Source: Minisyncoccia bacterium
GTDB lineage: Bacteria > Patescibacteriota > Minisyncoccia > Phycocordibacterales > Zambryskibacteraceae
Reading direction: 5' to 3'
NCBI GenBank assembly: GCA_041742965.1
Contig: JBGTNQ010000004.1
Coordinates: 716 to 64,715 of the forward strand
Length of the DNA stretch: 64,000 nucleotides
Part shown: positions 3,006-61,217 of the stretch, piece by piece
Layout of the letters: every line of letters starts with the position of its first letter
Position numbering within the stretch: the stretch's first letter is position 1
Position numbers and translations under genes: made by a program
The notes under the pieces: model-generated
What the model was told of the DNA's origin: nothing
What the model saw: the letters and a program-made list of their open reading frames with translations, nothing else
Databases searched by the model: none

Positions 3006-3079
3006 CCGCCCTTAGCTCAGTTGGTTAGAGCACAGAGCTTATACCTCTGGGGTCCCAGGTTCAAATCCTGGAGGGCGGA
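3006..3079 (+). tRNA. tRNA-Ile with anticodon UAU (reads AUA)
   Basis: Cloverleaf: acceptor ccgccct/agggcgg, D-arm gctc-agttggtta-gagc, anticodon stem cagag/ctctg with loop CTTATAC, T-arm ccagg/TTCAAAT/cctgg, discriminator A. CCA not encoded. Confidence 0.75.
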
Positions 3080-6790: not shown

Positions 6791-7193
6791 GGGGGTGAAT
6801 TGCTTAGACAAAGAAGTCCCCTTGAAATACGCGAGAGAGAGCTGTGGTGACTCTTAAATCCGCCACAAATGACTAAATGCAAACAGCATCGTCGCACGAG
6901 CAAAGTCGGTAGTTTCTCCATATTTTGGAGCTAAGGATTTCGCTTTCGCTTACGCTTCGGCCTAAGTGACATCAACCCTTGTGAAGTCTGTTAGCGAGGT
7001 GTTGGTGTAATATTTTCGGACTCTAGGAAATACCCGCTCCAGTATTTTCTGAACTGTAGGAGCTCGATAATGTGGGGTTTTGTTTACTTTCAACCCACAT
7101 TATTTAAATCGCTTCGGCGAATGAGGTAAACTACCTCTCGTAGAAGTATTTCAAGGGTTTCTTTGCACGGGAGCTCAATACTCCCCACCTCCA
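6791..7193 (+). ncRNA. ssrA: tmRNA (SsrA), one-piece
   Basis: Immediately downstream of smpB. 5' GGGGGUG pairs with 3' CACCUCC, giving a 7-bp acceptor stem with a G3:U70 wobble (alanine identity), then discriminator A. T-arm-like gggag/CUCAAUA/ctccc at 7169-7185. Ala-rich tag-like frame ending AKDFAFAYASA then stop at 6963-6965, with a candidate GCA resume codon at 6879. Terminator follows. Confidence 0.65.
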
Positions 7194-7275
7194 CAAAAAT
7201 AAGGAACGAAGTGACTATATTTTTGTAGGACTCCGCTTCGCAGCGCGAAGCGGAGTAACACAATTTTAAAAAAAC

Positions 7276-21797: not shown

Positions 21798-21897
21798 GTA
21801 TAAATAAAATGAAAAAGCTTCATGGAAGCCGTTGGCTTACCATCCTATCACAGGAACCTGTCTTGTCAATAAAAAGCCTTAGTTTTAGGCTCAACTT

Positions 21898-24724: not shown

Positions 24725-25141
24725 TTAAACTTCTGCTTTTTTATCCTCCACCTTTTTTTCCTTTATCTCTTTTTTTACTTTTGAGTTTTTGGATTTAATT
24801 TTGCTCTTATCTTGTTCTTCCAAAACAACAGAAATATGACTTGTCCTCTTTCGAATAGGGTGTGCACGTCCTCGAGAAGCTGGCTGTCGGCGATACAAAA
24901 TCTTCCCGCCATCCACTCGAATTTCTTTTATAACTAAAGAGTCTGTATCAATAGATAAGTTTTTAGCATTTGCGAGAGCAGAACGAATGAGCTTAGCTAA
25001 CGGGTCGGCTGAGCGCTTAGCGAGAAAAGGAAGAGTGTCTAAAACGTCATTCACTTTCTTACCTCGCAAAGAGTTCGCCACTAATCGTACCTTGCGCGGA
25101 GACTGTCGATAATCATTTAGTTGTGCTGTGACTTTAGACAT
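24725..25141 (-). CDS. rplV: 50S ribosomal protein L22, with Lys-rich C-terminal extension
   Basis: Sequence and position. Confidence 0.85.
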   Translation of the reverse strand: MSKVTAQLNDYRQSPRKVRLVANSLRGKKVNDVLDTLPFLAKRSADPLAKLIRSALANAKNLSIDTDSLVIKEIRVDGGKILYRRQPASRGRAHPIRKRTSHISVVLEEQDKSKIKSKNSKVKKEIKEKKVEDKKAEV

Positions 25142-25146
25142 AAATA

Positions 25147-25488
25147 TTATTTAGCCCCCACTGTAGAAGCCTTGGCTGATTGAGCTGCTGCAATTTCTGC
25201 TTCTTTTTTCTTTTGCTCGAGCTCTTTCTGCATCTTTCCTCCGTGACGAACAAACTTTCTAGTTGGAGAAAATTCACCAAGTCTATGCCCTACCATGTCT
25301 TCAGTTACAAAAACTTCGACATGTTCTTTTCCATTGTGAACACCAAAGGTGAAACCCACCATTTCTGGAGCAATCTGACTGGCTCTAGCCCAAGTTTTGA
25401 TTATTCCTGTTTCATTGGGCTTTTTCCCCTCAATTTTTTTGAGAAGTCTTTCGTATACATATGGACCTTTTTTGCTTGAACGTGTCAT
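25147..25488 (-). CDS. rpsS: 30S ribosomal protein S19, with Ala/Lys-rich C-terminal tail
   Basis: Start moved to [11 protein letters not shown] (cat at 25486-25488). The tracked N-terminal 21 aa overlaps the promoter. Confidence 0.88.
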
Positions 25489-25522
25489 AGAGAATAGAAA
25501 AAGCTCGGACGAGCTCCAGAAG

Positions 25523-25551
25523 ATACTATACAAAATGGGCCTAAGTGTCAA
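25523..25551 (-). promoter_or_regulatory. Sigma70-like promoter driving rpsS. -35 TTGACA, 17-nt spacer, -10 TAGTAT.
   Basis: Plus-strand tgtcaa at 25546-25551 and atacta at 25523-25528. About 30 nt upstream of the rpsS ATG. Confidence 0.55.
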
Positions 25552-25662
25552 ACCCTGTAGTGAATTTTGGTCTCACAGCAAAGCTGTGGTACAGAGCACA
25601 AGACCAAAATCTACTACTGGGTCAAATCCTTAGCTAGCTTAAAGGCTTATAGGGAGATCCTA

Positions 25663-25704
25663 CAAAAACAGCGCCCCGCTATGGCCGAAGGCCACCGCGG
25701 GGCT
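25663..25704 (-). terminator. Rho-independent terminator (minus strand) at the end of the cassette C ORF
   Basis: gccccgc-ggtggccttcggccat-agcggggc then TTTTT on the minus strand. Confidence 0.55.
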
Positions 25705-25990
25705 TGCTAGCAGTGAATGGATATAGCGTATCGGGCGGATTAAATGGTATGTTCCACTTCACCAGAAACGGGTGCCCCTCCCGAACAAAGCCCTCGCTCA
25801 CAAAGTTGGCCCAATCCAACTCATGGGCCACCAACTCACTAGTCCCGACCTCGTTATCATCCAAAAACATAAAAAAGAAACCGGACTCATGAAGCCAAAA
25901 CTCAACTTCTCGTACTCCATCTTGAGACTTATGACGCCACTTGCCATCACTGTAGAGAATAGGGCCTCGCTCTGCGGGTTTACGCCACAT
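25679..25990 (-). CDS. Hypothetical protein, GC-rich cassette C inserted between rplB and rpsS
   Basis: 103 aa (MWRKPAERGPILYSDGKWRHK...). SD GGGGGG 5 nt before ATG. GC about 50%. No family recognised. The C-terminus runs into the terminator stem, so the exact 3' end is uncertain. Confidence 0.4.
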   Translation of the reverse strand: MWRKPAERGPILYSDGKWRHKSQDGVREVEFWLHESGFFFMFLDDNEVGTSELVAHELDWANFVSEGFVREGHPFLVKWNIPFNPPDTLYPFTASKPRGGLRP

Positions 25991-26131
25991 CGTCACCCCC
26001 CAATAGACGCATTAGAACTTTCTGTATTTGAAATACCACTAAATGAAAATTTTTACAAGTACAAACACAAACCCCGCGCCAGTATTGACGCGGAAAATTT
26101 CTACTTTACTTAACAAAAGAACAGACCTATC

Positions 26132-26160
26132 AAAAAACGGCCTTATCGGGCCATTTTTTG
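26132..26160. terminator. Weak bidirectional terminator-like hairpin
   Basis: AAAAAA-cggcc-ttatc-gggcc-ATTTTTT. Confidence 0.35.
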
Positions 26161-26186
26161 TGTTGTATTTTGCATTTCCAACATCG

Positions 26187-26276
26187 GAAAACCCCTCTGG
26201 AAAACATTGCGCAGGCGGGTAGCCGAGCATAGCAATTCGCAAGCTTGCGAATATGCGTGTTTTCCAGAGGGGTTTT
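26187..26276. repeat. Perfect 19-bp inverted repeat enclosing a 52-nt loop that contains a 16-nt palindrome (ttcgcaagcttgcgaa)
   Basis: aaaacccctctggaaaaca ... tgttttccagaggggtttt. Immediately 3' of the rplB stop. Confidence 0.6.
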
Positions 26277-26331
26277 TATTTAATTTGTATTTATAAACTA
26301 TAAGCTTACAGCTAAAAGCTCTAAGCTACCC

Positions 26332-27171
26332 TTATTTCTTCCCAACCTTCCTCCTACGAACAATGAAAACATTTGAATATTTCTTTGGTCGGCGAGATTT
26401 CTGTCCCTTTCCAGTAGGTCTTCCAGTAGCTGTCTTCTGTCTTCGGCTTCCGCGACCAGAACGCCCCTCTCCTCCTCCGTGTGGGTGGTCAACAGGGTTC
26501 ATGGCAGTACCTCGAACAGTAGGACGAATCCCAAGCCATCTACTTCTTCCAGCTTTACCGAGGTTTACTAGACGATTTTCATCATTTGAAACTTCACCAA
26601 TAGTTGCCCAAGAATTTTCACTTACCTTGCGAACTTCAGAAGAAGGCATCTTAAGATCCACTGCTCCAGCATCCTTTGCTACCACTTCAATGAAGCTCCC
26701 AGCTGAACGGCCGAGCTTAGCACCACCTTTTGGTTTTACTTCAACATTGTATACAAAAGTACCAACAGTTATTTCTTTCAAAGGAAGGCGGTTTCCAGGA
26801 ATTTGTGGGGCAGACTCTGAAACAATGAGTGTGTCACCCACCTTTACACCTTTTGGAAGAAGAACATATCTCTTTTCACCATCTCTGTAAACAGCGAGAC
26901 CTATGAACCCTGTGCGATTTGGATCATACTCAACGGTTTTTATAGTATAAGGAATATCGAACTTGTTATATACAAAATCAACATCTCTAAAAAGCCTTTT
27001 GTGACCTCCGCCCTTGTGTCTTGTAGTAATACGACCATGGTGGTTCCTGCCCATCTTTCTCTTGAAGCCTGAGGTCAATGACTTTTCAGGTTTTTGAGTA
27101 GTCACAATATCTCGATAGTGAATCGAGGTCATGTTGCGTCTTGAGGCTGTTGTTGGTTTAAACTTTTTCAT
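26332..27171 (-). CDS. rplB: 50S ribosomal protein L2
   Basis: GRNHHGRITTRHKGGGHKR ... C-terminal Gly/Arg-rich region. Confidence 0.92.
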   Translation of the reverse strand: MKKFKPTTASRRNMTSIHYRDIVTTQKPEKSLTSGFKRKMGRNHHGRITTRHKGGGHKRLFRDVDFVYNKFDIPYTIKTVEYDPNRTGFIGLAVYRDGEKRYVLLPKGVKVGDTLIVSESAPQIPGNRLPLKEITVGTFVYNVEVKPKGGAKLGRSAGSFIEVVAKDAGAVDLKMPSSEVRKVSENSWATIGEVSNDENRLVNLGKAGRSRWLGIRPTVRGTAMNPVDHPHGGGEGRSGRGSRRQKTATGRPTGKGQKSRRPKKYSNVFIVRRRKVGKK

Positions 27172-28914: not shown

Positions 28915-29089
28915 TGATTTGTTAGGAGCGAAGCGAGTTACAAATCAATGAACCCCGCCCTATTTCTCCAAGTAGAGAGTACTCTACACTATTTCTTTTC
29001 TATTTCAAGCCTCTAACAAACACCATTTCACCCACCCCCCAGGTGGTGGGAATGATAAATGGGTCGTCTCTAGACTCCCCATTTATCTA

Positions 29090-30711: not shown

Positions 30712-30872
30712 AATTTTTTAAAGACTTACTAAAAATAATAAATAAAAATAAAAAAACAGAATCGCCCACCAGCCCAAAGCCGGTAAAACGCGTAGGAGAT
30801 ATGATAACAAAACGGAAGAAATAGTCAAATATTTAAACGGAAAGATGGCGTCTCTAGACAAACTTTCAGACA

Positions 30873-59490: not shown

Positions 59491-59691
59491 AAACCGCACA
59501 AACTATAATCACCCTACGCCCTATATATAAGAGTGATCGTGTATGGGGTTGACATAAAATCTGTATTTGCTATAATTAAGGAGTGAGTGTATTAGTTCGC
59601 CCAAAAGGCGGACTCGTTTTTTTAGAGAAATGTAAGAAGTAAAACGACTATACATTTCCTAACCCCGTGAAATAACTTTTAAATCTTCCCT

Positions 59692-59958
59692 ATGTTCTAT
59701 ACGTATGTACTTCGATCTAAAAAAGATTCAAAGTTGTACATTGGTTGCACAAAAGATTTAAAAGTTAGATTTGAGGAACATAACGCTGGGTATTCTTCAG
59801 CAACAAGTAAAAGAGGTCCGTTTCAACTTGTTTATTACGAAGCTTGTTGTGACAAGAAAGACGCGTTGCGACGGGAGAGATATCTGAAAACTACCTATGG
59901 TGGAAGATATCTCAAAAATCGCCTCAAATCTTATTTCACAGGGTACTCAATTTTATAA
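59692..59958 (+). CDS. GIY-YIG nuclease family small protein
   Basis: YTYVLRS...LYIGCT (GIY-YIG), R and E catalytic residues. 88 aa. Confidence 0.65.
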   Translation: MFYTYVLRSKKDSKLYIGCTKDLKVRFEEHNAGYSSATSKRGPFQLVYYEACCDKKDALRRERYLKTTYGGRYLKNRLKSYFTGYSIL

Positions 59959-59984: not shown

Positions 59985-61217
59985 ATGTTTGACCTAAAAG
60001 TAATAAATTCCGTTCTTGACCAGATGGAACAAGAGCGAGGAATACCAAAAGAAAAAATTATAGAGGCCATAGAGATGGCCCTAGCAACTGCATATAAGAA
60101 AGAATACGGTAAACGCGGACAAATAGTGCGTGCCAAATTTGATATAAATACCGGAAAAACTGAATTTTATCAGGTGAAGATTGTGGTTGATGATTCACGA
60201 GTTATCATCACAGAAAATGATGATGACTTTGTGCGTGAAGAAGGAGACGAGAGAATTTTCTTCAACTCCGAACATCATATTCTCATAGAAGACGCTCAAA
60301 AAATAAAGCGTGATGCTGAACTGGATGAAGAAGTTGTATTCCCATTAGAAAACAAGAGCGACTTCGGACGCATTGCATCACAAACCGCGAAGCAAGTCAT
60401 AATGCAAAAAATCCGTGAAGCAGAAAAAGATTCAGTGATGGGAGAATTCGGAAGTCGAGAGGGAGACATTGTCACTGGAACAGTACAGAGAGTGGAAAGA
60501 GGAAATATTTTTGTAGATATGGGCAGAGCAACCGGCCTTCTGCCATACGAAGAACAAATACCTGGAGAAAGATTTGCCCAAGGAGAAAGAGTGCGCGCAT
60601 ACTTATATCGCGTAGAAGAAACTCCAAAAGGAATATTCCTCCGTCTCTCTCGTTCTCATCCAAAGTTTTTGGAAAAACTATTTATGCAAGAAGCTCCAGA
60701 AGTTGCTAATGGAATGGTGGAAATAAAAGCTGTCGCCCGTGAAGCGGGAAACAGAAGTAAGGTCGCTGTATTTTCAAAAGACGAGCACATTGACCCAGTG
60801 GGTTCTATGGTAGGACAGCGTGGTGTCAGGGTCTCTACGGTAACGAGTGAGCTCGGCGGAGAAAAGATAGACATAATAGAGTGGTCATCTGACTCAAAAA
60901 AGTTTATTGAAGACGCACTCTCTCCGGCAAAAGTTCTCTCTGTAGAGATTGACGAAGAAAACAAACAAGCACATATAAAAGTGTCTGAAGATCAACAGTC
61001 TCTAGCTATCGGTCGCGGAGGACAAAATGTCCGGCTGGCAGCAAAACTTACCGGTTGGAAAATAGACATTCAGTCTGTTGGCGGAGAAAACCTAGCAGAG
61101 GCCGAGGCTCTACCAGACGAAGTGAAACCTGAAGAAAAACCAATTGAAAAAGTTTCAGAAGAAACTGAAGCCATATCTGACGCGATCTCTACCCCAGACG
61201 AATCATCAGAAAAATAA
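59985..61217 (+). CDS. nusA: Transcription termination/antitermination factor NusA
   Basis: N-terminal domain, S1 domain, tandem KH domains (GRGGQNVRLAAKLTGWKIDI). Confidence 0.88.
   Translation: MFDLKVINSVLDQMEQERGIPKEKIIEAIEMALATAYKKEYGKRGQIVRAKFDINTGKTEFYQVKIVVDDSRVIITENDDDFVREEGDERIFFNSEHHILIEDAQKIKRDAELDEEVVFPLENKSDFGRIASQTAKQVIMQKIREAEKDSVMGEFGSREGDIVTGTVQRVERGNIFVDMGRATGLLPYEEQIPGERFAQGERVRAYLYRVEETPKGIFLRLSRSHPKFLEKLFMQEAPEVANGMVEIKAVAREAGNRSKVAVFSKDEHIDPVGSMVGQRGVRVSTVTSELGGEKIDIIEWSSDSKKFIEDALSPAKVLSVEIDEENKQAHIKVSEDQQSLAIGRGGQNVRLAAKLTGWKIDIQSVGGENLAEAEALPDEVKPEEKPIEKVSEETEAISDAISTPDESSEK

Follow-up and report, generated by a model that had tools for sequence, protein, structure and literature searches.

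Why do two ribosomal protein genes whose junction is tight in most bacteria lie 843 bp apart in a genome that has kept the gene order around them? The question is raised by rplB and rpsS in a 64,000-nucleotide stretch of a Minisyncoccia bacterium (GenBank assembly GCA_041742965.1, contig JBGTNQ010000004.1, positions 716 to 64,715), hereafter called the window, in whose numbering all positions are given. Both genes are on the minus strand, and the gap between rplB (uL2; 26332-27171) and rpsS (uS19; 25147-25488, ATG at 25488-25486) spans positions 25489-26331. Few gene adjacencies in cellular life are as conserved as the uL2-uS19 junction, and in E. coli, where the gap measures 16 bp, both genes are co-transcribed from one promoter, with L4 control exerted at the S10 leader. 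A preliminary description of the window, which had put the separation at about 840 bp, regarded the interval as a foreign-looking insertion and the split of the operon as the work of an acquired cassette. Our comparison with related genomes suggests a different origin. We consider it likely, with a probability of about three in four, that an old transcription-unit boundary shared across the sampled clade is seen here in its local form. Judging from the sequences, the split is ancestral within this clade, and the present insert merely occupies a slot that already existed.

The rplB-rpsS junction is open in related genomes

Searching one genome per GTDB species and the Joint Genome Institute (JGI) metagenomes with a uL2 probe yielded 160 related loci, all of the Paceibacteria/Parcubacteria type, with uL2 identities of 60 to 79%; the edge of the clade lies beyond the approximately 60% identity reached by this sample. 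A closer relative was sought, and the best uL2 identity reached 79% for the GTDB representatives and 78% for the JGI metagenomes. rplB and rpsS were present in order in 105 loci, where the gaps ranged from 12 to 4311 bp, with a median of 775 bp. They were more than 30 bp apart in 99 of these 105 loci, including 34 with gaps of 700 to 1200 bp and 25 with gaps exceeding 1.2 kb, while six gaps were shorter than 30 bp. Furthermore, 13 additional loci extended for at least 3.9 kb past rplB without rpsS. The premise that rplB is directly followed by rpsS in bacteria is thus true of E. coli but not of the sampled lineage. The length of the gap also differs widely between sister taxa, with jumps of 127 versus 1537 bp, 120 versus 3723 bp and 62 versus 3640 bp on a neighbor-joining tree of uL2 and uS19.

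An open junction could also be a chimeric join that arose during assembly or binning. The source is indeed a metagenome-assembled genome, and ribosomal regions can hamper binning (PMC9723686). However, a Logan contig of run SRR28170462 is identical to the locus over 6312 bp (100% identity); the 279-amino-acid product of rplB carries the Pfam domains Ribosomal_L2_N and Ribosomal_L2_C on this contig. Such an identical stretch in a separate assembly makes an artefact of one assembler unlikely. Additionally, gene order and strand are unbroken, and the same architecture was found in relatives from many studies. We regard an artefact of this kind as extremely improbable.

Terminator-like hairpins and a predicted promoter at the edges of the gap

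The genes rpsJ-rplC-rplD-rplW-rplB-rpsS-rplV-rpsC-rplP-rpmC-rpsQ follow one another on one strand of the window, as in a contiguous S10 operon. What is missing is a tight rplB-rpsS adjacency free of internal terminators and promoters. Instead, the gene strand of the 843 bp harbors four terminator-like hairpins, three past rplB and one past an open reading frame (ORF), as well as a promoter sequence that matches 10 of 12 consensus positions. rplB would be the last gene of an upstream unit (rpsJ-rplC-rplD-rplW-rplB), and rpsS the first gene of a downstream unit (rpsS-rplV-rpsC-rplP-rpmC-rpsQ-rplN-rplX-rplE).

A terminator scan returned 7 terminator-like sites in 1.8 kb, compared to 1.8 ± 1.2 in shuffled sequences. 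The first hairpin past rplB (26184-26281, minus strand) consists of an A-tract, a perfect 19-bp stem (26276-26258 with 26206-26188, the arms being 100% complementary), a 51-nt interior that contains a separate 7-bp sub-hairpin, and a final UUUU; the region 26170-26331 has a fold z score of -6.3. This hairpin is the probable rplB terminator, of the A-tract/T-tract type. The second (26131-26160) is a symmetric AAAAAA-GGCC...GGCC-TTTTTT inverted repeat that has the terminator-like form in both directions and was matched on the plus strand in the scan. The third, CCGCG...CGCGG, lies on the minus strand at 26072-26095 with a T-rich tail reaching 26062, and comprises 10 pairs, 6 of them G-C. The fourth, a GC-rich hairpin with a U-run around the stop codon of the ORF (25664-25703, minus strand), is the predicted terminator of the ORF unit. 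The 19-bp repeat, the bidirectional hairpin and the strong GC terminator had been announced in the preliminary description, and all three were recovered.

The near-consensus TTGACA-17-TAGTAT promoter proposed for rpsS was likewise found, on the minus strand at 25551-25523 (TTGACA at 25551-25546, TAGTAT at 25528-25523). It is the sole minus-strand sequence with 10 of 12 consensus positions in the region 25000-26800.

Both kinds of signal recur in the relatives. A canonical hairpin followed by a T-run within 150 nt of the rplB stop codon was present in 65% of the 77 loci with a gap of at least 300 bp, compared to 5% of the shuffled sequences. These hairpins started at a median of 12.5 nt past the stop codon, and many were of the A-tract/T-tract type. 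The GC-rich hairpin with a following U-run that characterizes an intrinsic terminator is both in excess in the scanned 1.8 kb and conserved past rplB. Similarly, 85 of the 98 loci with a gap of at least 55 bp had, no more than 160 nt from rpsS, a promoter sequence in agreement with at least 9 of 12 consensus positions; its -10 box was typically located 30 to 50 nt ahead of the ATG. In an alignment of 62 sequences (A1), TTGAC and TA...T were invariant, and a TTTG-type extended -10 was common. The hexamers, a spacer of 16 to 18 nt and a position kept in the relatives are those of a sigma-70 promoter. Even in four loci with a gap of 22 to 24 nt, a TTGGAA-17-TATAGT sequence is present, which overlaps the last codons of rplB. 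Since the gap and its boundary signals are found in most of the sampled loci, and the promoter even where the gap is very short, the boundary would be older than its present filling.

The operon is thus very probably split at the level of transcription, as had been claimed. The cause given for it, a recent foreign cassette that came between formerly adjacent, co-transcribed genes and brought the terminators and the promoter with it, is not supported: 99 of 105 related loci have an open gap, and the promoter persists where only 22 to 24 nt separate the genes. Indeed, of more than 100 related genomes, the great majority have the gap, the post-rplB terminator and the rpsS promoter with its hairpin, and the conservation of the promoter and leader sequences in these relatives points to native rather than imported signals. 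We consider a cassette origin of the split quite unlikely, even though the composition of the interior, described below, would speak for it.

A hairpin at the predicted 5' end of the rpsS mRNA

The leader of rpsS (25489-25517, minus strand) opens with a hairpin, GGAGCUC-GUCC-GAGCUUU (25517-25500), which starts 6 nt past the -10 box and is followed by a U-rich tail that lacks a Shine-Dalgarno (SD) motif and reaches the ATG. A stem of at least 5 bp starting 3 to 14 nt past the -10 box was found in 81% of 83 loci, compared to 19.5% of shuffled sequences and 29% of coding-sequence controls. The hairpins comprised 27 distinct stem sequences, and 54 of 60 had at least five T residues within the next 8 nt. 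In a set of 19 seeds with 4-nt loops, all five stem pairs showed compensatory changes (34 of 95 cells), and the covariation score of the stem was 0.917, compared to 0.207 in shuffles; the seeds had been picked for folding, so that their 100% pairing is given by construction. The register of the seeds was held by artificial constant anchors, plain MAFFT on such short seeds having lost the structural register. An SD-like motif was present in only 7 of 98 rpsS leaders. Overall, the conserved parts of the region lie at the edges of the gap, namely, the post-rplB terminator, the rpsS promoter and the hairpin at the predicted transcript start.

A covarying structure in the 5' untranslated region of a ribosomal protein operon is what one would expect of an autoregulatory leader, within the limits set by the selection of the seeds. 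The hairpin and its U-tract might then be an attenuator or a ribosomal protein-binding leader that replaces the L4-controlled S10 leader for the downstream genes. The stems covary and run into a U-tract, the element heads a ribosomal protein operon that is cut off from the rpsJ leader, and the design recurs ahead of rpsN and tuf, which are likewise translation genes. This recurrence also shows that more than one operon has the structure, and at 59549 a promoter, hairpin and T-run in comparable arrangement precede a GIY-YIG-like ORF and a nusA-like ORF, with the hairpin further from the -10 box. Moreover, a stem of 5 to 7 bp and varying sequence seems too simple for a specific protein-binding site, and neither the S10-leader family nor any other Rfam leader family matched at the locus. 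Finally, the hairpin begins only about 6 to 9 nt past the -10 box. It would thus sit at or near the 5' end of the mRNA, leaving no space for an alternative antiterminator fold, which favors a constitutive, stabilizing role over attenuation. A regulatory leader is therefore an unlikely explanation.

A proposed two-unit model of the S10 operon

Taking these observations together, we propose that in the sampled Paceibacteria the classical S10 operon is expressed as two units. The rpsJ-rplB transcript would end at intrinsic terminators past rplB, and the rpsS-rplE unit would be transcribed from its own near-consensus, native sigma-70 promoter. The rpsS mRNA would start with a short GC hairpin located at, or within a few nucleotides of, its 5' end, followed by the SD-less U-rich leader. 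We infer that this hairpin acts chiefly as a constitutive 5'-terminal stabilizer, that the hairpin and its U-tract may also halt read-through from upstream cargo, and that the U-rich tail may serve as an SD-independent ribosome-loading site. Once the need for co-transcription was lost, the space between terminator and promoter could take in DNA and become a slot with fast turnover. Here, this slot would hold the three tandem terminator-like hairpins, a foreign-looking orphan ORF unit and a long inverted repeat. The features themselves, the degree to which relatives keep them and the variable nature of the interior are directly visible in the sequences, whereas termination, the start site of transcription, the role of the hairpin and any expression of the ORF are deduced from them.

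Several points weigh against an old, shared boundary or against parts of this model, besides the choice of the covariation seeds. The terminators and the promoter are consensus matches only, and a 19-bp stem with a 51-nt interior is atypical for a terminator. A hairpin with a U-tract placed right past a promoter could stop the promoter's own transcripts. The ORF unit may have been acquired recently into a pre-existing slot. Furthermore, the surveyed loci come from metagenome-assembled genomes, and some of the large gaps could be mis-joins; despite this caveat, more than 100 independent assemblies concur on an open gap.

The slot holds different DNA in different relatives

In nearly all relatives, the nearest of which shares 79% uL2 identity, the rplB-rpsS site is occupied by other content, and the gap interiors are mostly unrelated between species. 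The cargo includes a diacylglycerol kinase, DUF3298, a mechanosensitive-channel-like membrane protein, an ABC transporter set, rplJ-rplL, MazF, two IS200-like Y1 transposases, an M17 peptidase, PyrF, Lgt, YkuD and an EEP nuclease. In each of the three closest genomes, the slot is taken by a singleton ORF of its own, with 180 amino acids (locus L002), 220 amino acids (L010) and 103 amino acids (the window); for none of these ORFs was a homologue found among 5.8 billion clusters. Upstream of the two ORFs in L002 and L010, we found sequences fitting a strong promoter and SD consensus. No resemblance was detected when the gap and ORF of the window were compared with the gaps and ORFs of the relatives by tblastx and phmmer. 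In the comparison with relatives of up to 79% uL2 identity, the boundary signals are shared and would be ancestral, and the interior is unlike the gap of any relative.

Two groups of loci were observed with more distinctive content. A sister clade (L004, L007, L083, L091 and L107) has gaps of 3 to 4 kb that carry rplJ-rplL, encoding L10 and L7/L12, together with a membrane protein containing a mechanosensitive-channel helix and either YkuD or a MazEF pair; rplJ-rplL, usually part of a different operon, has been relocated into the slot in these genomes. IS200-like Y1 transposase genes were present in L068 (gap positions 28-717, opposite strand) and L135 (gap positions 131-802), and these were the sole mobility genes observed in the slot.

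The window itself contains an imperfect long inverted repeat at 25541-25633, without assigned strand. The repeat had been described as a structured element at 25568-25610; it exists but is larger, with arms of 33 nt at 25541-25573 and 25601-25633 that are 76% complementary and 27 nt apart. Its fold z score is -3.8. On the minus strand, the 3' arm overlaps with the -35 box of the rpsS promoter. No second copy of this repeat was found within the 64-kb window, nor did the 19-bp and 33-nt repeats occur there in multiple copies as a miniature inverted-repeat element or insertion sequence (IS) remnant would.

An orphan ORF of uncertain function

The ORF in the gap comprises 103 codons on the minus strand (25679-26001 including an SD-like motif; ATG at 25990, stop at 25681-25679). 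No homologue was found among approximately 15 billion proteins. A word-indexed search of 5.8 billion clusters matched only the ORF itself, and an exhaustive phmmer search of 1.84 billion representatives returned the ORF and two repeat-driven false positives. Pfam, NCBIfam, PHROGs, PADLOC, PDB and IMG/VR gave no match to the ORF, so that its suspected orphan status withstood the profile searches that had been suggested, and the gap DNA matched no phage or plasmid record. The ORF is a true orphan.

As had been stated, the ORF is GC rich. The GC content is 0.48 to 0.52 over positions 25500-26000, compared to 0.405 for the window, and the GC content at third codon positions (GC3) is 0.54, compared to 0.34 in native genes. 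The codon score of 0.007 per codon is 2.5 standard deviations below that of the native window genes (0.244 ± 0.095). The interior is thus unlike the host in composition, and this, together with an SD-like motif atypical for the genome and the lack of any homologue, is what would favor a recently arrived cassette. On the other hand, no integrase or transposase was recognized by Pfam, PHROGs or PADLOC, the only flanking direct repeat is one 10-mer with one copy inside the ORF, and neither a donor nor a homologue emerged from the protein, phage, plasmid and viral collections. The insert can therefore be called foreign-looking by its GC3 and codon usage but not by mobility genes, a donor or phage, plasmid or viral matches, and a foreign origin of the ORF unit is possible on compositional grounds.

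Whether the ORF is a gene at all is a closer question. The interior (approximately 25640-26180) might be a nonfunctional spacer made of eroded cargo and terminators, in which the 103-codon frame arose by chance. Indeed, an antisense overlapping ORF of 113 amino acids is equally long and scores on a par with it (0.030 versus 0.007). No promoter-like site was found upstream of the ORF in the scan, and three terminator-like hairpins precede it; these tandem hairpins with nothing between them resemble leftovers. The absence of homologues points in the same direction, as does an AlphaFold2 model with a predicted local distance difference test (pLDDT) score of 48, which was computed from a single sequence without an alignment and is hence weak evidence. 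By contrast, the layout is gene-like: the SD-like GGGGGGTGA (26001-25993) ends 2 nt ahead of the ATG, and the stop codon lies inside the strong terminator hairpin. The codon score of the frame is also well above that of off-frame controls (-0.62 ± 0.23 per codon), useless DNA is usually lost from small, reduced genomes, and the slots of the closest relatives hold the 180- and 220-amino-acid orphan ORFs with promoter- and SD-like sequences upstream. The motif ahead of the ATG had been presented as a strong SD. Although it is present, SD-like motifs precede 9 of the 56 predicted genes of the window, compared to 17% of random 17-mers, which is a background rate and makes the motif weak evidence for a gene. 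Most ribosomal protein genes lack such a motif, and the host organism seems to rely little on SD pairing. All in all, we give the spacer explanation a little less than an even chance and estimate that the ORF has roughly a one-in-three chance of being a functional gene. The ORF unit would be either a weakly expressed lineage-specific gene or the decaying remnant of earlier cargo.

We also considered a structured noncoding RNA, instead of a protein, as the product of the GC-rich part of the gap. In AT-rich genomes, structured RNAs typically stand out by a raised GC content, and the whole gap folds with a z score of -9.0 relative to shuffles. However, this excess of structure stems from the discrete hairpins, whereas the ORF segment alone reaches a z score of only -1.4, which makes a structured RNA unlikely. 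Rfam returned only noise on the gap, both at gathering thresholds and at E values up to 10, and no sequence is shared with the gap of any relative. This explanation is very hard to sustain.

A bolder reading, which we think rather improbable, is that the slot is a selected site for lineage-specific genes, possibly newborn ones or ones serving host interaction, that the hairpin and its U-tract form a new two-in-one element and that the 103-amino-acid orphan is a real and very young protein. If so, the same element would end incoming read-through while serving as a cap-like protective 5' stem, and accessory genes would be parked beside the most highly expressed operons.

Related arrangements and other features of the window

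The promoter-hairpin-U-rich leader design is not specific to rpsS. A second break with terminator and promoter is located in the ribosomal cluster at the rplE-rpsN junction (21798-21897, minus strand; about 100 nt), where a hairpin and T-run are followed by TTGACA-16-TAGGAT (the rpsN promoter, at 21869) and by an rpsN leader that consists of a small hairpin and an SD-less, U-rich stretch. The tuf leader (30712-30830, minus strand; promoter at 30828) has TTGACT-16-TATCAT, the hairpin ACCGGCTTTGGGCTGGT, a long U-rich tract and the ATG. Given the second break, the ribosomal cluster of this genome reads tuf / rpsJ-rplB / slot / rpsS-rplE / rpsN-...

On the plus strand, TTGACA-16-TATAAT occurs at 59549, and past it come a hairpin and T-run, at a greater distance from the -10 box. 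Downstream are an ORF of 88 amino acids (59692-59958, plus strand), whose N terminus is GIY-YIG-like by appearance, and, directly after it, a nusA-like ORF of 410 amino acids (59985-61217, plus strand) identified by eye. The segment 59549-61217 might represent a small insertion, of the mobile or homing type, ahead of a core gene.

Within the upstream unit, the rpsJ-rplC gap (28915-29089, minus strand) is unusually long for an operon interior, with 175 nt, and holds a GC-rich hairpin, CCCACCACCTGGGGGGTGGG, without a U-run. The rpsS product bears an Ala/Lys-rich C-terminal extension, a known trait of Parcubacteria uS19 (PMC9297842). The window further contains a transfer-messenger RNA gene (6791-7196, plus strand; Rfam, 101 bits) and transfer RNA genes at 1-75 and 3006-3079.

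Comparison with known systems

In gene content and order, the cluster of the window is identical to the canonical S10 operon of E. coli. It differs by the 843 bp that replace the 16 bp between rplB and rpsS, by terminators and a separate promoter at this site and by the fact that no S10-leader family was detected. The S10-spc block is taken as one syntenic unit in the concatenated phylogeny of 16 ribosomal proteins and in contiguity checks of metagenome-assembled genomes. We found no prior description of the rplB-rpsS break in the searchable literature on ribosomes and ribosomal operons of the candidate phyla radiation (CPR)/Patescibacteria. What appears to be new is that an operon break and a hot spot for insertions coincide at a junction of unusual conservation; the window's own insert, a small orphan unit, is minor. 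In this large class of ultra-small bacteria, gaps of 0.1 to more than 4 kb are routine at the uL2-uS19 junction, suggesting that the constraint of co-transcription can vanish while gene order is undisturbed. It also calls for caution, as the ribosomal protein block of these genomes includes nonribosomal cargo and internal promoters.

For Gammaproteobacteria and Bacilli, multigene insertions have been reported between the operons of the str-S10-spc-alpha cluster (PMC6735719, PMC8046335). The likeness is that a conserved translation cluster has been opened by lineage-specific insertions with its order otherwise kept. In those cases, the insertions are located at existing operon boundaries, whereas here the break lies inside the S10 operon, and, unlike them, it represents a recurrent slot with fast turnover across a whole class.

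The slot also shares features with integration hot spots, which are variable regions between two conserved core genes. Its flanks, rplB and rpsS, are fixed, and its contents, among them a MazF toxin, an IS200-like transposase and orphan ORFs, are unrelated. Unlike such hot spots, it has no integrase, tRNA or attachment site, the insert in the window carries no mobility gene, and much of the cargo is of the housekeeping type (rplJ-rplL, pyrF, lgt and dgkA-like genes).

Finally, 5'-terminal stem-loops are known to stabilize mRNAs, as in E. coli ompA and in the aprE and ermC leaders of B. subtilis. For organisms that still cannot be grown on their own, the predicted combination of TTGACA-17-TAnnAT, a 5' hairpin and an SD-less U-rich leader provides a clear design of promoter and leader that lends itself to testing. 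As in ompA, aprE and ermC, a short, stable hairpin would lie a few nucleotides from the predicted 5' end and be followed by the translation start region. In contrast to these leaders, the rpsS hairpin runs straight into a U-tract, like a terminator, and the leader is devoid of an SD motif.

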